From Candidatus Woesearchaeota archaeon (lineage in GTDB: Archaea > Nanobdellota > Nanobdellia > Pacearchaeales > GW2011-AR1), in assembly GCA_964494915.1 (NCBI GenBank), contig CAZBTP010000001.1, forward strand, positions 6,792 to 70,791: a DNA stretch of 64,000 nt. Direction: 5' to 3'. Numbering within the stretch: position 1 is the stretch's first letter; each line of letters begins with the position of its first letter. The notes under the pieces were generated by a model, which did not search any database, was not told the origin of the DNA, and worked only from the letters and a program-made list of their open reading frames with translations. Shown one piece after another: positions 6,663-51,782 of the stretch. The translations under genes and the position numbers were made by a program.

Positions 6663-9600
6663 CTATAAGTTCCTTTTGACATCCTCGAGATACTTGCTGT
6701 AGCCGCTTAGTACCTTTTGACATCCAAATGGGTAATCGAACAACCAGAAGTTAAAGCATCTTCGACAAGCACCAACCCAAAAACCAAGATTCTTATCATT
6801 GATACATATATGGTTCTCTGGACACTTAAGTATTTCATATTTTAGTGCATTCCCAACACAATAAGGCACCTGCAGATCATAACCAGAAGGACTACAAAGA
6901 TCTGATACTTCAAAATCTCCTACTCCTTGATTTCCCGTAACAGTATTCTTCTCCTTTTTTATTAAGTCGTATGAGAGGGGATTGAGTATCATATCTTTAT
7001 TACTTCTACCTGGTCTTGTAGGGAATACTCTCCCCGCAGGGTCATTGCATGTGTATCCAAGCTGTCCTGCGTCAACAACAGCAGGCGCAGGCGGTGTTGT
7101 TGATCCTTCAGCTCCACTACATGTAACACTAACGCTATTGCTATTCGCGTCTAATCCTTCATCACCGCCATCGATGTAATAGGTATGACTTCTGACAGAG
7201 GCTTCAAAACTAGTTGACAGCAAGGTCTGCCCGATAACTACATCACTTGGTTGCTCAACAAACTTTACAACTTGATTATTCTCTACAACATTATATCCGC
7301 TAACTGAATTAATACTGGCCCATGATAAATCAACGCGTGTACCGCTGCAGAAGCCAGCTAGTGAGATCTCGAACTGTGTTGGTGTTGGCGTTGTTGTACC
7401 CGGTGTCGGACTTTGAACATCTCGGGGCGGACTAATACAATAATAGATCACTCTTCCATTTCTATCTTCAAACGATCCTATAACACTATCGCTCCCGCAA
7501 CCGTTATACTGAACATACACATTTGTCAAGAACACGGTATTTTCTGAAAATGAAGACTTCCTCACACACTGATACACGACCGCCCCCTTTCCGTCAAGGA
7601 ACCAACTGCCAACACGATCGCCCACGATCCCACAACCTTCTGCACTATCGCGGAAGTAAACATGAGTAACATACTCTTTTCCAGGACTACCAACAGACTT
7701 CCGTACACAATGATTAATCCGCCGTCCATTAGCATCATCAAACCAACTTGTAACATCATCACCCCCACAAGTATCATACTGAAAATAAGCCCCTTCCACA
7801 ATCCCTATTGAAACAGTCAAGGGAGGCGTCGTAATACCATTCGCCTTTAACTCTCGGAAGATATTCCTCGCCAAACCAGGATCGCGTTGGCTACCAAAAA
7901 ATCCCCCAGGTTTCTCAAACAAGAAATCAACCAGTGTCTCCTGAAATGCAGCATCAATCCTTCCAGAACTCAACCTGCTTTGCAACGTATCAGCCATCGA
8001 ATTACTCAATTCGCGAACACGCTGAACAGCAGAACTACCTAGATCAGAACTGAGTGTGGCATCATCAACAATAAGTTCTTTCAATACCTTCTCGCCAAGT
8101 TCAGCATTCCGCGGCGTATTCAAAAGACCACGAACACCATAGAGGTAATCTAACAAACTAATCTGAAACTCAACATCAATATTACGCGCATTAAACTTCG
8201 TCTCTAAATTACTTGCCATCCCTGGATCTTTATCCTGTAAATAACTGATAACTTCGTCTTTCAACGCACCGCTAATCATATATCCATTTAACACAATAGG
8301 TAATGTTCCTTCTCCACCTTGTTCTCCTCCAGTTCTACCAGATACAATATCAGCACAGCTCATTGCGGTAAAGGTTTGCAGAAGAGAATTCACTCCATTT
8401 GATATCCATACACTATAGGCACCCCCTTCCTGCAAGGTAAACCCACTCTGTCCGATATATGTTCCAGAACTCGCGTGCCAGAATGTTCTCTCGCCACCAG
8501 ACGGAGCAACAACACTGGTCGTAGAAGAACTAACATACGTATCCCAATAATCAGTTGGGTAGGTTGTGTGTGAGCCAGGAGCAATAGCGATCCAATATCT
8601 CCCAGTTGAAGGAGCAGCGCCACCAGACCATGAAATCGTTGCTTTTGAGACGCCATTCTCACACAAAAGGGACACACTAGGCTTGTTCACTGGCGTGACA
8701 GAAGGAGTATTCTGAGTAGGTGTTGGTTGCGTTGGTTGCTGTGTACAAATAGGAGTCGTTATACTAGTCATCCTTGAATTCACGCCGTTAGAAACCCAGA
8801 AACTATAAGCTTTATTTCCTTCCAAAACAAGCCCACTTTGTCCGATATATGTTCCATCTTTTGCGTGCCAGAATGTTCTCTCGCCACCAGACGGAGCAAC
8901 AACACTTGTCGTAGAAGAACTAACATATGTATCCCAATAATCAGTTGGATATTCGGTCGTGTACGAACCAGGAGCAACAGCGATCCAATATCTCCCAGTT
9001 GAAGGAGCAGCGCCACCGCTCCACGAAATCGTTGCTTTTGCAACGTTTCCATCACAAAACGGAGTTAAAGATGGAGGATTCACCGGCGCTATCTGAGGAG
9101 GGGTGGCTGTAGTGGTTGGCGTCGGTGTAGGTTGTGGAGTTAATTGTTGCGTACAAATAAGGGCACGGAAATGGGTCCTTCCTGAATTCACGCCATTAGA
9201 TACCCAGTAAGTATACTCTTTCGTTGGTTCCAAAACAAATCCTCCTTGTTGAATATACGTACCGTCTTTCACATGCCAAAATGTTCTCTCGCCACCAGTT
9301 GGAACAACAACACTTGTTGTAGAAGAACTTACATAGCTGTCCCAGTAATCAGTTGGATAGGTTCCATATAAGCCGGGAGCAACAGCAATCCAATATCTTC
9401 CACCTGAGGGAGCACCACCACCGCTCCACGAAATCGTTGCTTTTGCAACGTTTCCATCACAAAACGGAGTTAAAGATGGAGGATTCACCGGCGCTATCTG
9501 AGGAGGGGTGGCTGTAGTGGTTGGCGTCGGTGTAGGTTGTGGAGTTAATTGTTGCGTACAAATAAGGGCACGGAAATGGGTCCTTCCTGAATTCACGCCA

Positions 9601-41093: not shown

Positions 41094-41168
41094 GATCGTG
41101 TAGCTCAGCCCGGTTAGAGCACTGCTCTGATAAGGCAGGGGTCCCCGGTTCAAATCCGGGCACGATCA
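41094..41168 (+). tRNA. tRNA-Ile (anticodon GAU)
   Basis: GAUCGUG-UA-GCUCAGCCCGGUUAGAGC-A-CUGCU-CUGAUAA-GGCAG-GGGUC-CCCGGUUCAAAUCCGGG-CACGAUC-A. Confidence 0.85.
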
Positions 41169-41561
41169 TGCATTCTTATCTTTTTTAAAATCAAGCGCGA
41201 GTGAGTTGATGCAATAACGTTCGCCAGTAGGATGTGGTCCATCATGAAAGAGATGACCAAGATGACTGCCACATTTTTTGCAGAGGACTTCTGTTCGAAT
41301 CATGCCATGCGAATAATCAGGTTTTGTTGTTACATTTTTTTTGTTAGAAGAGAAGAAACTTGGCCAGCCGCTACCAGAATCAAATTTTTTCTCTGATGAA
41401 AAGAGTTCTGCGCCACAGGCAGCGCATCGATAGCCACCGTGATCTTTATTGGAAAGAAGTTTCCCTGAAAACGCAGGTTCTGTCGCTTTCTGTCGCAGCG
41501 CTGCGTACTGTTCAGGAGAGAGTTTGTTCTTGAAAAAGGTTTCAGAGATCTTTTTTTTCAT
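41166..41561 (-). CDS. msrB: peptide-methionine (R)-S-oxide reductase
   Basis: Two CxxC pairs ([21 protein letters not shown]) and catalytic RYCINS. Confidence 0.9.
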
Positions 41562-41564
41562 TAG

Positions 41565-42245
41565 CTAGTGATTGTTAAACTCAACAAAGAGTTTGTTTTC
41601 TGAAATCATATAGCGTTTCATTGGAAGGTTAACAGGGATTGAGTTCACATAAACCTTCTTGTCACCAATTGCTTTTATTTCATAACCTGATTCAAGTCTC
41701 GAGACAAAGATATCATCGACCGATATGAGACCAGGAGTTGTTAGTTCGTAGACTATTTTATTACCAAGGCGTTTTACTGTTGTCTTTGCTTTTTCCTTTG
41801 GCAATTGAGCCATACGTTCGAGTTGTTCTTCAGAGATCTTTCTTTGTTGAGGCTGGTGTCTGTGTAATGAATTGGTATGGGGCGGTAGTTGACTCGTAAT
41901 CTTTATTCGCACTCCATTAGGGAGTGTTGTTATCTCTGCGTTGGCATCATTGAGCTCACGTTCCATCTCCTTCATTTGTTGTTTAAATTGCTTATCAAAG
42001 GATTTCATAATGCTATTGACAAGTGAATTAAATATTCTATCTGAGATTCCGAATCCTTCCGGAGAAGCAGCCTCATTCTCGGAGAGAGAAGAATCGTCTC
42101 TACCAAGGAGACCATAATCGCGCTGTTCTTTTTGATGATCGATAATAGTGTTCCCACAATATGGGCAGAACTTATAGTCCTGACCTGACAATTCTCCACA
42201 CTGATCACATCGCTTCTTGTTTTTTTTATTGAAAAGCATCGCCAT
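41565..42245 (-). CDS. zinc-ribbon protein with possible Hsp20/alpha-crystallin-like C-terminal domain
   Basis: N-terminal CDQCG...CPYCG ribbon. C-terminal beta-rich region IVYELTTPGLISVDDIFVSRLESGYEIKA...KLFVEF. Confidence 0.35.
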   Translation of the reverse strand: MAMLFNKKNKKRCDQCGELSGQDYKFCPYCGNTIIDHQKEQRDYGLLGRDDSSLSENEAASPEGFGISDRIFNSLVNSIMKSFDKQFKQQMKEMERELNDANAEITTLPNGVRIKITSQLPPHTNSLHRHQPQQRKISEEQLERMAQLPKEKAKTTVKRLGNKIVYELTTPGLISVDDIFVSRLESGYEIKAIGDKKVYVNSIPVNLPMKRYMISENKLFVEFNNH

Positions 42246-42297
42246 ATTAGGAGAGCAGTACTTTTAAACTTTCCGTCGATCCCACGCCATGGTTTTT

Positions 42298-43713
42298 TTA
42301 CGATTTATTCCTAAAGAGTACCCGAAACCAACCCATTTCTGCACGGATTGTTCTGAAAGGATGAGCAATGTGGACATGCATTGGTGGAAGACGTTCGACC
42401 TTGCGAACCTCTTCTACACGTGGAAGGAAGACGAGTGCGACACCAAGCCGAAGGAGCGAGGCTAAGATAAAGATGAGAAAGAATTTATTGAGCGAGAGCG
42501 TATTTGAAGGGAGGACAGAAAGAAGATAACCCCCAAGAATAGCGCCGAAGAAACTGCCAAGCCCAATAAGAACGTTCGTATAAGCGATACAGCGACCGCG
42601 TTTTTCTTGAGAGACAGCATCATAGGTAAAGTTCGTTGATGCGATAATGAATGCTGCGTTCGCAATACCTGCCACGAGTTGCGGTATAACAATCAGGTAG
42701 ATCGGATTCTTAGATATGAGCCAGAGAAGTGGTGTAAAAATAAAACATACGTTCGCGATAACCAGAAGGCGTGCGTTGCCATATCTATCCGAGAACTTGC
42801 CTGCAAGTGGTGTGAAGAGGAGGTAAAAGAGTGAAGAACTCATTGCGACAAGTGTATAGAGGAGATAGTTCTGATTATAGCCAAGTTCTTGGAGCATGTA
42901 GACCGCAAAGAATGGTGATGCGACCATAATTGCGAATTCGAAGAATGCCAAATACACAGAAAACCTTCCGTAATTATCAAAACGTTTTATAAATTGCCAG
43001 AATGAAAAATAGTTTGAACGATGGATCTTGAGCGGTGGTGCATAATGTTTCCGAAAACTTGCGAACGATAACATGCGGAAGAGAAATGCGAGGATAAATA
43101 AGATAAAAAAACCAATCATAATCCCTTCTTGTTCGAAGAAATCAAGGATAAATGCGCCCATAAGAAAGGTCACAAGGCTTACGATACCAGTAACAACATT
43201 TCGTTTGCTGAAATACCGACCACGATCTTTCTCAGGAACAAGATCACCCATCCAAGAATACCAAGCAGGAAATGCAAGTCCATTAAAGATACCAAGAAGC
43301 GTATAAGCGACAATAAGAAACAAGATAAAAAAAGGATTCTTCGTTTTTATATATGCAAAGATTGCAATCGCTGCGAGAACGAGCCACATACACGCATTAA
43401 GGAAAACAGAGGCGAGAACAATCTTTTTCCGTGGACTTCTCGCCATAAGAGAACTCCCCCGAAGTTGTGCGAGAGGTGACGCAAGCGCTGTGATCGCGCT
43501 GAGTAGACCAATATGGATTGGTTGTGCACCAAGTACGTCAGCAAAGGGCGTTATATATGAATCACCAGTTCCTGTTGCAACACTCGCCGCAGCACCTTCG
43601 TCCATACTGCGCCTAAGTGTTTTTTGCTTTTCGTGAACGACTTTGGTTGACGAACCTTTCACGTCTTTTTCAACCTCTTTTATATCAAGAATCTTTTTCG
43701 CTGGATTCTCCAT
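42298..43713 (-). CDS. MFS transporter
   Basis: About 12 predicted TM helices in a 6+6 layout with a cytoplasmic N-terminal extension. Confidence 0.7.
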   Translation of the reverse strand: MENPAKKILDIKEVEKDVKGSSTKVVHEKQKTLRRSMDEGAAASVATGTGDSYITPFADVLGAQPIHIGLLSAITALASPLAQLRGSSLMARSPRKKIVLASVFLNACMWLVLAAIAIFAYIKTKNPFFILFLIVAYTLLGIFNGLAFPAWYSWMGDLVPEKDRGRYFSKRNVVTGIVSLVTFLMGAFILDFFEQEGIMIGFFILFILAFLFRMLSFASFRKHYAPPLKIHRSNYFSFWQFIKRFDNYGRFSVYLAFFEFAIMVASPFFAVYMLQELGYNQNYLLYTLVAMSSSLFYLLFTPLAGKFSDRYGNARLLVIANVCFIFTPLLWLISKNPIYLIVIPQLVAGIANAAFIIASTNFTYDAVSQEKRGRCIAYTNVLIGLGSFFGAILGGYLLSVLPSNTLSLNKFFLIFILASLLRLGVALVFLPRVEEVRKVERLPPMHVHIAHPFRTIRAEMGWFRVLFRNKS

Positions 43714-43744: not shown

Positions 43745-44434
43745 TTACCCAGCATCTAACTCTTTTTTTCTCCCTTTAAGTCGTTCTCTGACTGTTCTTA
43801 CTATCCCAGGTAATAGACTCTGTCCCTTTTCAAGTACATCTGGTTTCTTTCCCAAATATTCAAGATGGAGAATACTAAATGGAACTCCTCTGTAACGTGT
43901 ATCTCTACGTTTTCTTTGAGCATAGAGATGCTCTCCGATAGTGACTCGCGGATTCTCATCACGTTCTATTGGTGTTTGATATTCTATTTTTTCTCCTAAG
44001 AGGTGTAAAGAAAGGTTTCCTGTTTCTCTTTTTATTCTTCTGTTTATATGAATAACCATACCCATATAAAGCAATATGCATGGCTGAGAAACTCTGTCTA
44101 AACGATCAGCAACGCGTCGATAGGCAAGAATAACCTGATCTAATGCGAGCGCTCCTATTTGGGACTGAAACTCAAGAGCTCGGTCAGCATGAAAAGTCGC
44201 TCGTTGTTCTGCTGAGGCAAGTCTCCTTTTTGTTTCTCTGAGCGTTCCTTGATAGCTCGCCTCTACATCACGAAATCCCGCTTCCTGTCCTCTAATAACA
44301 TCCCGATAACGTTGATCGTGTTCATCAAGCCTTCGTTGATATGAGGGTGTCGATTGAATAAACACATCAAGACAACTTGCAGTTGTTCTAGTAAAGTATG
44401 TTACAACACCTCGAAGAAGACCGCGATAATCCAT
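43745..44434 (-). CDS. hypothetical Arg-rich protein
   Basis: 229-aa ORF, no domain recognised. Confidence 0.4.
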   Translation of the reverse strand: MDYRGLLRGVVTYFTRTTASCLDVFIQSTPSYQRRLDEHDQRYRDVIRGQEAGFRDVEASYQGTLRETKRRLASAEQRATFHADRALEFQSQIGALALDQVILAYRRVADRLDRVSQPCILLYMGMVIHINRRIKRETGNLSLHLLGEKIEYQTPIERDENPRVTIGEHLYAQRKRRDTRYRGVPFSILHLEYLGKKPDVLEKGQSLLPGIVRTVRERLKGRKKELDAG

Positions 44435-44465
44435 TATTCATATGACAACCGAAATATTTAAATAG

Positions 44466-44494
44466 TATTGTATACACAGAAAGTGTATACAATA
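44466..44494. promoter_or_regulatory. palindromic operator-like site (12-bp arms, 5-bp spacer) 8 nt upstream of the start codon at 44502
   Basis: tattgtatacac-agaaa-gtgtatacaata is a perfect inverted repeat. Confidence 0.45.
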
Positions 44495-44501
44495 AGGATA
44501 C

Positions 44502-44885
44502 ATGACTATGAAAGACTTGTTTGATGCAAAGATCGTGTGTAAGCAATGTGACGTACAGATGAAACCAATCTACGTCGAAAAGTCTGGTTTTCGTCTGCGA
44601 GCAATTCACTGTCCACACTGCAATGATAAGATTATTCATCCCGGAGATTTACACGATTTAGAGCAGTATAATGGCTTGCGGCAGAAAACGTTCGATGTGA
44701 AATTACGTATGGTAGGAAACAGCCATGCAATCAGTATCCCGAAAGAGATTGTTGATTTTATTAATGAAACACACCAGCGCATGCATAAACAGATGAGCGA
44801 TATGGTACGTTTAGGATTTGAGGATTTTGGAAAGTTGAGCATTACATTTTTTAATGATGCTCAAAAGAGGGGGCGCGAATGGTAA
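44502..44885 (+). CDS. zinc-ribbon plus AbrB/SpoVT-like (swapped-hairpin) small protein, translationally coupled to cdc48
   Basis: CKQCD...CPHCN ribbon. [22 protein letters not shown] resembles AbrB/MazE. Stop overlaps the CDC48 start (ATGG at 44879). Confidence 0.5.
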
Positions 44886-47800
44886 AGAGCACAGGTATTA
44901 AACTAAAAGTCGTTGAGTCATTGCAAGACGATGTATACAAAGGAGTTGCACGAATCGATCCGCAGATCATGCGATCGATGGGTTTGATGAGGGGCGATAT
45001 TATCACAATTCAAGGCGGGCGAGAAACGCAAGCGATTGTCGATCGTGCATACCCTGCTGATGTCGGCGAGAGTATTATTCGTATCGACGGTCTGATCAGA
45101 AAGAATGCGCGTATTGGCGTCGGTGAGCACGTTATCGTCAAGAAAGCAACGAGCAGACCAGCAACAAAGGTCATTATTGCACCTGCACAGCAAGGGATTA
45201 TGGTACAAGGCGATCCTGAAATGTTAAAGCAGGGTTTGTTAGGACGCCCAGTTGCAAAGGGAGATATCATCTCATTAGGAGGAGTGCATCGCCGGAGAGA
45301 TAGTATAGGTGATGGTTTTCCTGACTTCTTCGGCGATCTACATGATCTGTTCGGAGGGCATCTTGCATTTCCTGGCTTTCAACACCTACGATTTATCGTC
45401 GTTTCAACAATACCAAATCAGCAGTGTTTTATCAATGAAGATAGCGAGATCGTACTAAATCCAAAGGCCGTTGATATCTCTGAAGATGCAATGCCGGGTA
45501 TTACATACGAAGAGATTGGCGGTTTAAGGGACGAGATTAAAAAAATACGTGAAATGGTCGAACTTCCGTTGAAACATCCTGAGATCTTTGAACGTCTTGG
45601 CATTGACGCGCCAAAGGGAGTTTTATTACATGGTCCACCAGGAACTGGAAAGACACTCCTCGCAAAGGCTGTGGCGAATGAGTCCGATGCTAATTTCATT
45701 TTGTTAAATGGTCCTGAGGTCATGAGTAAATTTTACGGGGAATCTGAGAAAAAGATTAGAGATATCTTCGAAGAAGCAGAGAAGCATGCACCGAGCATTA
45801 TCTTTTTCGACGAGATTGATGCGATCGCGCCGAAGCGAGAGGATGTACAAGGAGAGGTTGAACGAAGGGTGGTAAGTCAGTTATTATCAATGATGGATGG
45901 TTTAAAGTCAAGAGGAAAGGTTGTTGTTATTGGAGCGACAAATAGGGTTAATTCTGTTGATCCTGCGTTACGAAGACCTGGAAGATTTGACCGAGAGATT
46001 GAGATCTCTGTCCCCGGAAAGGAGGCGCGTTTAGATATACTAAAGATTCATACGCGAAATATGCCATTAACAAAAAATGTCAATCTTGATATGCTTGCAG
46101 GAAAGACGCACGGTTTTGTTGGCGCTGATTTGTCCGCGTTGACAAAAGAGGCTGCGATGAATGTTCTACGAAAGATGCTACCTGAGCTTAAGATGGACAG
46201 TGAAGAACCAATACCAAAGGAGGTTTTGGAAAAAGCTATTGTTCGCGTCGAGGACTTTGAAGATGCATTAAAGGTTGTACGCCCGAGTGCAATGAGAGAA
46301 GTTTTTGTTGAAACACCAAATGTTTCCTGGGAAGACGTTGGTGGCCTAGAAAAAACAAAGCAAGAATTGAAGGAAGCCGTTGAATGGCCGATTACGAATC
46401 CTGACGGCTTTAAACGACTCGGTATCAGAGCACCACGGGGAATCTTGTTGTATGGACCTCCAGGAACAGGGAAGACGCTATTAGCGAAGGCAGTTGCGAA
46501 GGAATCTGAGGCAAACTTTATTCATATTAAAGGACCTTCGCTATTAAGTATGTGGGTCGGAAAGTCGCTTCCCTATGAGGAAGAGGTTATTGTAATGAAA
46601 AATGGGCTTGTTGATAGAAAACCCATTGGAAGGCTTGTTGAAAACAAAGAGAAGGCTGATGTTATAAGTTTTGATAAACATAAAAAAGTAAAGTTCTCTC
46701 CGATAAAGGATTTTATACTCCATAATTCGGATGGGTCTCTTGTTGAGATCACTACTGCAAGTGGTAGGAAGATTCGTGTAACGAAAGATCATTCATTGTT
46801 TAGTTTGTATGGTACTGAGATTATTGATCTGCCAACGACTCATCTTAAAGAGAATGAGAGCTATATTGCGATTCCGCGGAAACTTCCTCTTCCTGAGATC
46901 GAACCGGAGCCGATTAATCTCTTGCATGTTCTTGAGGAAGAAATTTCTGTTTCTTTTAATAGCTATATTGGGGAAGCGGTTAAGGTGTTAGGAAAAGAAC
47001 GATCTGCCGAAGTACTTGAGATACCTCTAAAGTATATGTATGATGTGCTTAGCAAAGAGTTGGCGATCTCCGCAAAAGGATTTCTAGCCCTCATGAAGGA
47101 AGCAGGAATAGCGTTCGACTATAAGCAGACTAGTATCCATGTACGAAATAGCACCCACTCAATGCAAGCTTCTTTGATTATTACTCCAGAATTGTGCGAA
47201 CTTCTTGGACTATGGGTTGCTGAAGGCGATTACAATAAAAAAAGCGTTCGTATTCATGCGATGAATAAGGAGATACGAATGAGAGTGAGAGAACTTTTAG
47301 ATGTCTGTCGTTTACCCTTCTCGACTAATAAAGAAACCTTTAGTATCAACTCGTTATTATTCCAGCGTATCATGAAGGAAGTTTTCAAGTTATATGATAA
47401 AGCCCATAATAAGCGAATACCTGCTTTGGTGTTTACTTTACCACGGCGATATATTCATTCTTTTTTGAGAGGTTATTACAGTGGAGATGGTTCTATTTAT
47501 TCTACGAATGGAAGAAGTTCTGCTATTGAAGCTGCGACAAAAAGTGAGAAACTAGCGAATGATTTACTTTATCTATTGTTAGGGCTTGGTATCGTTGGAA
47601 GGGTTTATGAAAAGAGCATTGATACAGAACGCTATTATCGAGTTATGTTTATGGGAGTCGACTATCTCACCGTATTTAGCGAGATAGGCTTTATTGATAC
47701 CAAGAGAAATAATAGGATTCTGTTGTACATTAAAAGTAAGAAATGGAAAAGAAGTGATAATATTCCTATTACAGGAGATTTGTACACGCTTCTTCCAAAA

Positions 47801-48619
47801 TCACGAAGATCGAATGAAAGTATTGAACGAGAAGAACTGAGAAAGATTGGGAACCAGTTGAATAATGAAAACATATTAAAATTGGTTGATGCCGATGTTT
47901 ATTTTGATAAGGTCGTTGAAATTACCAATCTCGACTATTCTCTCCCTGTATACGATCTAACAATAAATCCAACTGAGAATTTTGTTGCAGGATTTGGTGG
48001 TGTGTTCGTGCATAATAGCGAAGAAGGCGTTCGAAAGGTTTTTGAGCGCGCGCGGCAGGTCGCACCCTGTGTTGTGTTCTTTGACGAGATTGATGCACTT
48101 GCAGGAAAACGAGGGTTAGAAGTCGGGACAAAGGTAACCGAACGTGTTTTGAATCAGCTCTTAGCAGAGATTGACGGTCTTGAAGACCTAAAAGACGTAA
48201 CTATTATTGGTGCTACGAATCGGCCAGATATGTTAGATCCGGCTATCTTACGACCAGGAAGGTTCGATCGAGTGATCTTGGTTGATATACCCGATGAAAC
48301 AAGTCGTCAGAGAATTTTAGAGATCCATACCAAAAAGACACCGTTGGGAGACGACGTTGATATACGCGAGCTTGTAAAGTTAACCGATGGTTTTGTTGGT
48401 GCTGATTTAGAAGCGTTAGTACGTGAAGCTGCGCTGAATGCATTACGGAAAGATAACAGCGCGAGTATGGTGATGCTTGATGATTTCGACGAAGCGTTCA
48501 AGAGGGTTAAACCCTCAGTATCGCGCGACACTGCGCAGCGATACAAAAAGATCGAAGAGTATTATTTAAAGCGAGCAAAAGCAGGATTAGAAAGTTCCAG
48601 CCCTATGTATGCAGGATAA
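44879..48619 (+). CDS. cdc48: CDC48/VCP-like AAA+ ATPase containing a 484-aa LAGLIDADG intein in the D2 domain
   Basis: N-domain, two Walker A GPPGTGKT, two DEID Walker B, SRH. Extein about 762 aa once 46565-48016 is removed. Confidence 0.9.
46565..48016 (+). mobile_element. intein with LAGLIDADG homing-endonuclease domain inserted between WVGK and SEEGVRK of CDC48 D2
   Basis: Begins with Ser, ends VHN followed by Ser. Motifs [11 protein letters not shown] and [13 protein letters not shown]. Flanks reconstitute the CDC48 consensus LLSxWVGESE. Confidence 0.85.
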
Positions 48620-48896: not shown

Positions 48897-51782
48897 TTAG
48901 AACCGACAACTGTCTCCACGACATGAACGTCCACCACAGCCCGTATATAACGACGAGGGATTCCCACAGGAGTCAAACCAGTAAACATTCCCATTATAGC
49001 AGCTTTTGTATGCAAAATCCGAGCAACATCCTGAAAAATCGAATAAGCAATTGGAATTGCAACCTAATAGTCCACGGTCCCAACAAAAGTTTCCACAGGT
49101 TTTTCCGTTCAATTTGTTTCCTTCGCATTGTTCACCGGGTTCTATTAGGCCGTTTCCACAAATGGCCTGCACCCGGTCTATTGAAGAGGGATTTTCCAAG
49201 ACTACAAGAGCAACTGGCAGGCTTCCACTCCTCCGGAATTGGTTTATCGACTTCAGATAAAGGTTTTCCTTAATTGCGGGTTTGATTTGGGCATTTTGGA
49301 AATTGATTACAGTTTGGGGGTTAACGGTCTGGGAACCAATAACGATATTAGAGGTATCCAACAATTCAAATACCGCACTCGGCCGGTTGTCTGAATTGGA
49401 GTTTATTGAAACCAGTTTCATTTTCATGGTTTGGCCTTCAAAAATCCCTTTGCCTGTCAAGAAGATCATTGATCCCACGTCAATGGTTTTTGTTTCAAAT
49501 GTTCTGTCGCTGGGTTGTTCGATGCAGTAAATTCTTTGTCGGGTTGAACAATCGGATAATGATCTTTTGGTTCTTTCCCATTCAATCGTATTAGTCCCGT
49601 CAATTATCCCAGAAGCGCCTTTTACGGTGGCGCTATGTTGGTCAAAAGTCCAGTCCTGGCAAGTGAGAAGAGCACCCAAAGTCGGAGTCAATCGGTTGCT
49701 TGGTCTCAAAGGTTTTTTTCCAGTCCAAACAAAAGAGTTGACCAACGTTTTTGTTTCATCCAAATTAATGGGGTGTCGAATAGTTCCATCGGTAAGGTCA
49801 TTCCAATCATTTGCGATCCGTGTCCCGTCGAGTAACTGGTAGGGAAAGGGTGTTTCAGCGATTCCATTTCCTGGTTCCATAGCGGAAGTGCCCAGATAGG
49901 CTTTCCATCTTCCTCCCAAGTTGGCGTTGTCCGCGAGTATTTGGCATTGAAAGTCTGCCCCGCGTGTTCCACCGAGGTTTCCTGAAAATTGAGTGCTCGA
50001 AACAAACACTCGAAAGCGATTGCAATCCAATTCGCAGTTCGCAAGGTTTTCGTAGGGTTCGCAGACATTATTGCCACAAGATAAAGGAGAATAGGGTGGA
50101 AAATCAATTTTAACTTGGGTTTCTTCTAAGTTCGTCTTTAAATTGGTGATTCCAACATCGTTAAATGGTGCAATAACTGTTTGACCAGTTGGGATAATCG
50201 GCTTCAGCCAATCCCACTTATCATTTGTTCGCGGATTAGAATGGGGAGTCATATCGAGTAAAATAGGAGACGAGAAATCGTAATCGCTTAACTTTTTATG
50301 AGCCATCGGGCCGTTTATATCGTACTTTTCGCCACCATATATAGCGTCTTTGCCCAGGGGCTGTCGGAATTCAAGATAAAAAGTATAATCCTGCCTTGCT
50401 CCGCACGGAATTTTTAAGACTTTGGTGTTCAGACCCGCTCGTTCAAGCGGAGTTAACGCAATAATTGCATCCTGAGTCACATCCACTATGTTCCCTGAAT
50501 TAAACCAACCCAGTGTTTCTTTTTGGATGCTATTAAAATGTCCGTCGAGGCCGCCCATAATATCAAAATAATCACCATACTCGAAAACAGAACATGCATT
50601 CGGACTGTGAGAAAAAGAGACATCTCCGCATTCCAAACTGCTGGAGTGAGGCAGCCCCAAATTGTGCCCAAATTCATGAATAAATACGTTATAAAAAACA
50701 TCATCGAATCGATATTCTGCTATCAACAGAACCGAAGTTAAAGTTGAACTGCCATCTTGCGTATTAATAAAAGACGATCCGAGAGCAAATCCCAGACCAC
50801 ATGACACTCCGGTGGAAACAATGACTGCGATTCGTTGATAATCCGGATAGAAAATATCAGCATCGGCTACCTCCAGTGCCCTCTGAAGTAGTCCGTGAGA
50901 AGAACACACTTCTACGTCTCCTGAAGTTTCAATGTGGATGATATCCGAGGGTGTATCTCCTCCTTGGTACCATCCAAACACATTGCCAGTAAGCCATGTT
51001 TTACCGTAAGAAACTTCTTTGTAATAAGAATCAACCGAATCCGCATTGGTTAAACCGAATATGCGATCGTGAATTTCTTCTGGAGATACAGTGGGGGTAG
51101 GGCCATCCGAAAAAGCAACTAAAATTACGGCGATTTTTTGTTCTCCCGTCGTCGGAATTTGCGTCCTATCAACCTCAGCACCTGCAATGCCGAGTACTTG
51201 GTCCGCGTTCGCGAGGATAACCTGATTGTCAAGCGCGTACCCACTTAAAACCACTTCTGACCCTGAGTTGGTTTTAGGTTCCCCCATTGCAAAAAATAGT
51301 TCGGATCTCCCAGTTTTTTCTTTCAGAAAGTACCGCTGTTTATACTTTTTGTTTTCGAAGTCGTCCTCGTGCCAGACTTCAAATGTTCCTTGTTTTCGAA
51401 TGGACTGTTCAATATATAGTTTTATCCCTGGAGGCAACCGGTTTCGGGTTTCTCCCGGAAGTGCGAGTTCTAAAAAAGCCTTTGGGTCTTTTTTGATTAA
51501 TTGTAGCATTTTTTGTTTGCGTTGTTTGGCGAAGGTCACTCGTTTGGAGAGTGGAAGAGCATTATTCAGGAGTTGTGTATCGAACTTTTTGATTTGTTCC
51601 TTGTCGCTTACAGCGCTGGCAAAATCCGTTGCAGTGTTTTTTGGTCGAGAAGATGCAATCCCGGAATTTTCTAATATTAAATTTGGACCAAAAACCGAGC
51701 TTTGGATAACTGCTAGTATGCCCACAGCGGAGATAATAAAAACGACGAGTATCCAATTTAGCTGGTGCTTGAACGATCTCAC
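48897..51782 (-). CDS. secreted zinc metalloprotease, M6/InhA-like, with Cys-rich C-terminal region. GTG start.
   Basis: N-terminal TM/signal. EQKIAVILVAF...DSYYKEVSYGKTWLTGNVFGWY...HEFGHNLGLPH (HExxHxxGxxH). C-terminal Cys-rich modules. The start codon GTG lies inside the 31-bp repeat. Confidence 0.7.
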   Translation of the reverse strand: MRSFKHQLNWILVVFIISAVGILAVIQSSVFGPNLILENSGIASSRPKNTATDFASAVSDKEQIKKFDTQLLNNALPLSKRVTFAKQRKQKMLQLIKKDPKAFLELALPGETRNRLPPGIKLYIEQSIRKQGTFEVWHEDDFENKKYKQRYFLKEKTGRSELFFAMGEPKTNSGSEVVLSGYALDNQVILANADQVLGIAGAEVDRTQIPTTGEQKIAVILVAFSDGPTPTVSPEEIHDRIFGLTNADSVDSYYKEVSYGKTWLTGNVFGWYQGGDTPSDIIHIETSGDVEVCSSHGLLQRALEVADADIFYPDYQRIAVIVSTGVSCGLGFALGSSFINTQDGSSTLTSVLLIAEYRFDDVFYNVFIHEFGHNLGLPHSSSLECGDVSFSHSPNACSVFEYGDYFDIMGGLDGHFNSIQKETLGWFNSGNIVDVTQDAIIALTPLERAGLNTKVLKIPCGARQDYTFYLEFRQPLGKDAIYGGEKYDINGPMAHKKLSDYDFSSPILLDMTPHSNPRTNDKWDWLKPIIPTGQTVIAPFNDVGITNLKTNLEETQVKIDFPPYSPLSCGNNVCEPYENLANCELDCNRFRVFVSSTQFSGNLGGTRGADFQCQILADNANLGGRWKAYLGTSAMEPGNGIAETPFPYQLLDGTRIANDWNDLTDGTIRHPINLDETKTLVNSFVWTGKKPLRPSNRLTPTLGALLTCQDWTFDQHSATVKGASGIIDGTNTIEWERTKRSLSDCSTRQRIYCIEQPSDRTFETKTIDVGSMIFLTGKGIFEGQTMKMKLVSINSNSDNRPSAVFELLDTSNIVIGSQTVNPQTVINFQNAQIKPAIKENLYLKSINQFRRSGSLPVALVVLENPSSIDRVQAICGNGLIEPGEQCEGNKLNGKTCGNFCWDRGLLGCNSNCLFDFSGCCSDFAYKSCYNGNVYWFDSCGNPSSLYTGCGGRSCRGDSCRF

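Follow-up and report, generated by a model that had tools for sequence, protein, structure and literature searches.

In archaea, Cdc48 is a central unfoldase of protein quality control, and archaeal repressors bound between a TATA box and a transcription start block the recruitment of RNA polymerase. In Archaeoglobus fulgidus, cdc48 is said to belong to the operon hsr1-cdc48-hsp20, an arrangement that Rohlin et al. reportedly described in 2005. The closest described regulators are HSR1 of this organism and Phr of Pyrococcus furiosus, both of which are autoregulated and control regulons that include cdc48 and hsp20 (PMC9133787, PMC5852551, PMC10653856). They form arCOG01684 and have been placed among the ArsR-family regulators (PMC5852551). 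Phr occupies a site that overlaps the transcription start, and blocks the binding of polymerase to the TBP/TFB promoter complex (PMC9133787). For HSR1 the site is the palindrome CTAAC-N5-GTTAG, located upstream of the hsr1 gene itself, which heads an operon with hsp20 downstream (PMC9133787, PMC5852551, PMC10653856). In view of the control of cdc48 by Phr and HSR1 in Euryarchaeota, the original prediction went too far in regarding the coupling of a DNA-binding protein to this unfoldase as undescribed (PMC9133787, PMC5852551, PMC10653856).

The locus studied here, which lies in a 64-kb stretch of DNA analysed as a whole (the window), resembles these systems in a dedicated control of cdc48 that we propose to be autoregulated, and we consider it reasonably probable that a small zinc-ribbon protein is the repressor of the operon that it forms with cdc48. 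The second gene of this operon and its presumed regulated target (44879..48619, plus strand, 1246 aa including an intein) encodes a genuine Cdc48, with Pfam matches to CDC48_N, CDC48_2, two AAA domains, AAA_lid_3, Intein_splicing and LAGLIDADG_3. It is preceded on the same strand by an open reading frame of 127 aa (44502..44885), the true start of which is probably the second ATG, at 44508, yielding a gene of 125 aa (44508..44885), since the homologues all begin with MKDIF and gene callers pick this second ATG. As anticipated in the original prediction, the small frame ends inside the start of cdc48: its TAA (44883-44885) runs over the ATG at 44879 in the 7-nt overlap ATGGTAA (44879..44885, plus strand, read as A-TGG-TAA). 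The same kind of overlap was found in 61 of 78 loci, and a gap of no more than 30 nt separates the two genes in 7 more. A conserved C-terminal tryptophan of the small protein was considered as a functional motif and rejected, as it is a by-product of the overlap (A-TGG-TAA over ATG-GTA, with Cdc48 starting MV).

The gene pair, for which the original prediction had looked to conservation across archaea, proved to be strictly maintained. Of the best 80 of 256 loci, taken from different species-level genomes, 79 encode a Cdc48 N-domain immediately downstream and in the same orientation; the 80th locus ends 176 nt past the match. The record titles of these loci read Woesearchaeota, Pacearchaeota, Nanoarchaeota or Nanoarchaeia, with two of Parvarchaeota/Parvarchaeum, all of them DPANN labels. 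No other gene is as tightly linked, the next real neighbor being present in 46 of 81 loci, upstream and on the other strand. In contrast to the HSR1 operon, hsp20 is found neither in the operon nor nearby, and the 81 neighborhoods contain no other conserved regulator gene. In the window, the nearest upstream frame (43745-44434, minus strand, 229 aa) has no family match and is divergent.

A core promoter (44450..44464, plus strand), composed of a BRE-like purine-rich element CGAAA (44450-44454) and the TATA box TTTAAATA (44457-44464), precedes the small gene. It is followed, 5 nt after the TATA box, by a first putative operator box (44470..44477), with the core GTATAC and the extended sequence GTATACAC, and then by a second (44483..44490), again GTATAC and extended as GTGTATAC, at 14-15 bp from the first as measured centre to centre. 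From the geometry of the promoter, box 2 is expected to sit at the transcription start. Both boxes, together with symmetric flanks, make up the perfect palindrome TATTGTATACAC-N5-GTGTATACAATA (44466-44494), the 12-nt arms of which are 100% complementary. This palindrome ends 7 nt before the ATG at 44502 and 13 nt before that at 44508, and the original prediction, which placed it 8 nt upstream, was therefore approximately right. It occurs once in the 64-kb window, and 100 shuffles returned 0 matches even when up to 3 mismatches were allowed; given that the 229-aa frame is divergent, the palindrome is not its terminator. The operator differs from that of HSR1, two GTATAC boxes being found here versus CTAAC-N5-GTTAG.

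The upstream regions of the related loci uniformly show a TATA box and, after it, GTATAC or GTATATAC in two copies, and the element RAAA..TTTAWATA precedes the boxes in related loci too. In the DNA scanned, which comprised about 6 kb of flank on each side of the loci and one 64-kb window, 72 occurrences of the strict double-box pattern were counted in 841,736 bases, and 69 of these lie immediately before the small ORF. When one mismatch at most is accepted, a box pair is found within 400 nt upstream in 81 of 81 loci, and the remainder of the 842 kb holds 5 pairs. The geometry is likewise maintained among the 75 loci with a scored pair, the TATA box lying 3-5 nt from box 1 in 57 and the box centres 13-14 bp apart in 59 (range 11-16). 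The palindrome thus exemplifies a promoter element that is shared by 81/81 loci, which at the level of sequence lends support to the original suggestion of autoregulation. No wider regulon was seen, as the non-cognate box pairs number 5 in 842 kb; further regulated genes could exist outside the scanned DNA.

The same comparison bears on two further readings, namely that the palindrome acts as RNA, for instance as a hairpin in the 5' leader with an effect on translation or stability, or that it arose by chance or for structural reasons and has no connection with the small protein; we regard both as very improbable. A transcript of the window copy could fold into a 12-bp stem, but elsewhere only self-complementary cores of 6-8 bp are kept and the flanks are often direct repeats. 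In fact, the box cores are self-complementary throughout, while the AC/GT flanks are inverted, direct or symmetric according to species, and because of this variation the long perfect palindrome is best seen as a local elaboration; variable flanks would suit palindromic DNA sites that act independently, and would not be expected of an RNA hairpin. Seven loci have box 2 right against the ATG, at about 25 nt from the TATA box, and these seven species are therefore expected to produce leaderless transcripts, with the boxes located between TATA box and start and box 1 left untranscribed. In addition, the palindrome region has no Rfam match, the best hit reaching 24.8 bits where the gathering score is 81. 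A chance origin was excluded by the shuffles (0 of 100) and by the distribution of the box pair, in 81/81 loci compared with 5 occurrences elsewhere.

Two of the five non-cognate pairs deserve a comment. Both lie in locus L040 (1922-1941 and 8760-8779), have the form GTATATAC-N4-GTATATAC and are found in GC-rich non-coding DNA that lacks a TATA box; one is located about 80 nt upstream of a tRNA-Gly(CCC) gene (8844-8917). The boxes of the cdc48 operon in L040 are degenerate (GTGTATCC...GTATATAC).

The protein encoded downstream of these boxes belongs to a family that is compact and isolated, since a profile was searched exhaustively against 1.84 billion representatives and only 155 sequences reached an E of 1e-3 or lower. 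Altogether 540 homologues were detected, with about 60% identity to the window protein, and the named ones are labelled Pacearchaeota, Nanoarchaeota or simply "archaeon". When one genome per species was scanned, a relative was found in 256 species-level genomes, all DPANN-labelled. The literature on Cdc48 in combination with AbrB, DPANN or zinc ribbon holds no description of this family and, if the role proposed here is confirmed, a "hypothetical protein" of at least 256 species-level genomes would gain a function.

The small protein is composed of two domains. The N-terminal zinc ribbon (44508..44681, plus strand; residues 3-60 when counted from 44502) has the spacing CxxC-20-CxxC and leads into a helix at residues 47-59. 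Its four cysteines (C13, C16, C37 and C40 in the same numbering) are invariant in 120 homologues, in agreement with the four-Cys ribbon of the original prediction, and the HP.D motif after the second CxxC is invariant or nearly so; the N-terminus MKDIFDAKI is also highly conserved. The C-terminal domain (44685..44849, plus strand; residues 62-116), which has an insertion of about 10 residues after its helix, contains the best-conserved stretch of the protein, the nearly invariant block VKLR.VGNSHA.SIPKE. In Pfam the window protein matches five families, none of them above threshold: three of the zinc-ribbon kind, HypA and MazE_antitoxin. In the last case (PF04014) the score is 14.7 bits for a cut-off of 24.7 and covers only model positions 2-18 of 48, and hence the window protein does not qualify for the family by the curated cut-off; the same sub-threshold match is observed in 35 of 35 members tested, the best with an E of 0.013. 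Likewise, in NCBIfam the window protein scores 22.1 bits against TIGR02609 doc_partner, for a cut-off of 55.9. No helix-turn-helix or ArsR family appears among its Pfam and NCBIfam matches at E up to 1. Accordingly, the zinc ribbon and AbrB/MazE-like domain found here, with no match to a helix-turn-helix, differ from the ArsR-type helix-turn-helix of Phr and HSR1.

The assignment of the C-terminal domain was approached through intermediates and structure prediction. Searching 1.84 billion representatives, the family profile retrieves zinc-ribbon proteins of 103-126 aa with E values from 1e-10 to 3e-4, and 7 of the 10 distant relatives scanned pass the PF04014 cut-off (24.7-35.9 bits), their best matches spanning model positions 1-41 and thus both hairpins; members of this distant family are named AbrB/MazE/SpoVT DNA-binding proteins at NCBI. 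Through these intermediate sequences and profile comparison, the small protein is connected to the AbrB/MazE/SpoVT group. Alignment by hhalign to a small, hand-assembled MazE/AbrB set, in which only MazE was checked (against PDB 1mvf and 1ub4), gave a probability of 37% with the entire protein and of 79% with the C-terminal domain alone, and was confident over only 21 columns, corresponding to hairpin 1 and the beginning of the helix. In this alignment the GNS-type first hairpin and the following helix match those of MazE, the first hairpin of which is the DNA-contacting part. A profile search of PDB sequences returned nothing relevant, the top match being a ferritin-like protein (E 0.004) over the helix region. 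The AlphaFold model built with 120 sequences predicts strands at residues 62-71 and 74-77, a helix at 81-90 and strands at 102-106 and 110-114; this predicted beta-beta-alpha-beta-beta order across residues 62-114 would be that of the AbrB/MazE monomer, and the extra length falls between the helix and strand 3. A first, shallower model had a low-confidence helix in place of strand 3. Taken as indirect homology plus one AlphaFold model, these data make an AbrB/MazE-like C-terminal domain probable. The AbrB/MazE-like segment of the original prediction therefore finds indirect support in the distant relatives and in the modelled topology, although the window protein itself remains below the Pfam threshold.

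The indirect nature of this AbrB superfamily membership leaves room for a pure Cdc48 cofactor or adaptor, in which the C-terminal domain would not bind DNA and would serve for dimerisation or for contact with Cdc48, the boxes being occupied by another factor. The strict linkage and the conserved stop/start overlap would agree with such a role, since conserved coupling of translation to that of an abundant AAA+ protein is also compatible with a protein partner acting in stoichiometric amounts, and zinc-ribbon models that include a ubiquitin-binding zinc finger give sub-threshold matches in 21 of 35 members. We nevertheless judge an adaptor of this kind to be rather improbable, as none of the five sub-threshold Pfam families is a known Cdc48-cofactor domain (UBX, SHP/BS1, VIM, PUB/PUL and Ufd1-Npl4 are all missing from the Pfam matches of the window protein) and an operator in 81/81 loci next to an AbrB/MazE-type hairpin would be left unexplained. 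A regulator whose gene lies elsewhere could occupy the boxes, but the neighborhood contains no other conserved candidate. The original prediction also drew attention to the cradle-loop lineage that AbrB and the Cdc48 N-domain share in fold evolution; this kinship is no evidence that the small protein and Cdc48 interact.

Returning to the autoregulated repressor, an invariant hairpin in the protein together with an invariant box core in the promoter is the pattern expected of a cognate protein-operator pair. We may hypothesize that the small protein dimerises via its AbrB/MazE-like C-terminal domain and that each self-complementary GTATAC/GTATATAC box takes one dimer. With the boxes filling the gap from the TATA box to the transcription start, the bound protein would block the recruitment of RNA polymerase, and as a single transcript, in which stop and start codon overlap, would serve both genes, the levels of repressor and unfoldase would move together. 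Some signal would then release repression, so that Cdc48 synthesis would be autoregulated, and the circuit may provide stress-responsive or homeostatic control of the Cdc48 level, a role that falls to the unrelated, winged-helix repressors Phr and HSR1 in Euryarchaeota. Binding of the boxes, the resulting repression and its signal-dependent release are what we infer from this arrangement. The position of the boxes and the predicted co-transcription with cdc48 fit the precedents of Phr and HSR1, given the start and the repression proposed here. Phr and HSR1 respond to heat shock, whereas in the DPANN-labelled hosts of the present operon heat is, on our assumption, no obvious signal.

A second type of precedent is offered by MqsA (YgiT), an antitoxin that has a four-Cys zinc ribbon at its N-terminus; its C-terminal domain serves for dimerisation and recognises a palindromic operator within the antitoxin's own promoter. 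In the MqsR-MqsA system the toxin gene comes first and the zinc domain of the antitoxin binds the toxin. The small protein shares this two-domain plan, with a structural similarity to MqsA that is weak and depends on the model used; however, the C-terminal domain of MqsA is of the HTH-XRE type and the one found here is AbrB-like, and no MqsR-like toxin is adjacent, the neighbors being cdc48 and the divergent 229-aa ORF. In relation to AbrB/MazE/SpoVT proteins, the likeness covers the first hairpin and helix, the topology predicted with 120 sequences, the small size, a palindromic promoter and the overlap with the next gene; the small protein departs from them by falling short of the Pfam cut-off and by its insertion of about 10 residues between helix and strand 3. 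Unlike AbrB-type antitoxins, it carries a fused N-terminal zinc ribbon, and the gene downstream encodes a housekeeping unfoldase and not a toxin.

The distant relatives retrieved by the family profile constitute a sister family with the same zinc-ribbon and AbrB architecture, the detectable homology spanning the zinc ribbon plus the N-terminal half of the AbrB domain. Among named sources it is found only in DPANN archaea, namely Aenigmarchaeota, Micrarchaeota and Diapherotrites. Its members differ from the small protein in being shorter (103-126 aa), in having a canonical PF04014 domain and in not being encoded upstream of cdc48. In four of the four loci examined, the sister gene (104-111 aa) is preceded and overlapped by a conserved gene of about 67-92 aa; these cassettes lie at 3757-4336 in L084, 3748-4330 in L085, 3801-4315 in L086 and 3721-4321 in L087. 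One of the partner proteins matches DUF4258 weakly (E 0.006). As far as gene order and sequence go, the cassettes look like an undescribed, toxin-first arrangement of the toxin-antitoxin type. By analogy, because the sister cassettes resemble toxin-antitoxin systems, the zinc ribbon of the small protein may bind a protein, for which Cdc48 would be the obvious candidate; binding of a protein partner, possibly Cdc48, is speculative.

On this basis the small protein could be a dual-function, antitoxin-like regulator, with its AbrB-like domain on the operator and its zinc ribbon on Cdc48, perhaps on the N-domain. Transcription of the operon would then report on free unfoldase, in the manner of the HrcA-GroEL titration or of toxin-antitoxin co-repression. 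Such a dual function, which we hold to be unlikely, extends the autoregulated repressor and does not contradict it. It would account for the stop/start overlap with cdc48 kept in most loci, it is in line with a sister family of identical architecture that is encoded in overlapping two-gene cassettes, and the conserved zinc ribbon and MKDIFDAKI N-terminus suggest a conserved binding surface. The partner gene of the sister cassettes is, however, unrelated to cdc48 and located upstream rather than downstream, and overlapping genes are common in compact genomes in general. A more specific possibility, which we consider quite doubtful, is a sensor derived from a toxin-antitoxin system, in which the AbrB-like dimer would repress only when the zinc ribbon is engaged by Cdc48, or only when it is left free; substrates piling up on Cdc48 would in this manner lead to de-repression of cdc48. 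If such a sensor exists, archaea would possess an equivalent of the HrcA-GroEL and sigma32-DnaK titration circuits, built on an MqsA-like antitoxin scaffold, and the small protein would be the first dedicated partner of Cdc48 to be described in DPANN archaea.

The sister loci also provide a limited view of operator recognition. The GTATAC double box was not found at the four sister loci. In three of the four sister promoters, AGATAT or GATATC-like repeats are present just after the TTTAAATA box (at about 3650-3756 in L084, 3640-3747 in L085 and 3610-3720 in L087). This hints that related proteins recognise related palindromic hexamers and, coming from four loci, it is to be taken as a lead only.

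As to novelty, the autoregulated repressor that is co-transcribed with a chaperone or AAA+ gene is a type of circuit already known, and so is the two-domain plan in which a zinc ribbon is combined with a DNA-binding dimerisation domain. The protein family, its double box and the strict linkage to cdc48 in a DPANN clade are apparently new. If the repressor is confirmed, the autoregulation of cdc48 known from Phr and HSR1 would have been reinvented with an unrelated protein, and a housekeeping proteostasis gene would be linked to an antitoxin-like protein design. To our knowledge, few DPANN archaea have been cultivated and almost nothing is known of their gene regulation; a clade-wide cis element with a candidate trans factor constitutes a testable prediction in these poorly understood organisms.

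The surroundings of the operon show several features of their own. The Cdc48 of the window is interrupted by an intein with a LAGLIDADG homing-endonuclease domain (residues 571-1046, window 46589-48016), which lies within the second AAA domain, after SMWVGK and before SEEGVRKVF, and is recognised by Intein_splicing (E 1.6e-24) and LAGLIDADG_3 (E 2.2e-18). The first residue of the intein and the +1 residue both appear to be serine. The median related Cdc48 ORF has 763 aa, and most relatives therefore probably have no intein. Upstream, on the minus strand (41166-43713), are genes for MsrB (SelR, E 1.6e-48), for a protein of 226 aa that carries a zinc ribbon at its N-terminus and for an MFS transporter. 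MsrB, a methionine sulfoxide reductase, is close by but on the opposite strand and outside the cdc48 operon; the 226-aa gene (41565-42245) is syntenic in 46 of 81 loci and the MFS gene in 37 of 81. A stress-gene neighborhood was considered on account of the C-terminus of the 226-aa neighbor, which by eye resembled an Hsp20 alpha-crystallin domain, and was rejected, as this protein has no Pfam match even at an E of 10. Directly downstream of cdc48 and convergent with it lies a 961-aa ORF (48897-51782, minus strand) with weak metallopeptidase matches, the best to Peptidase_M11 (E 9.5e-7); inspection of its translation by eye reveals an HExxH zinc-site motif (HEFGH) and a Cys-rich C-terminus, and in most of the related loci this ORF is not conserved beside cdc48. 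Finally, about 2.7 kb downstream of the first cdc48 in L003 (3346-3702) and L007 (6051-6401), a second, divergent CDC48_N-like region with 33-34% identity was observed, the sequence of which suggests a tandem cdc48 paralogue in some genomes.
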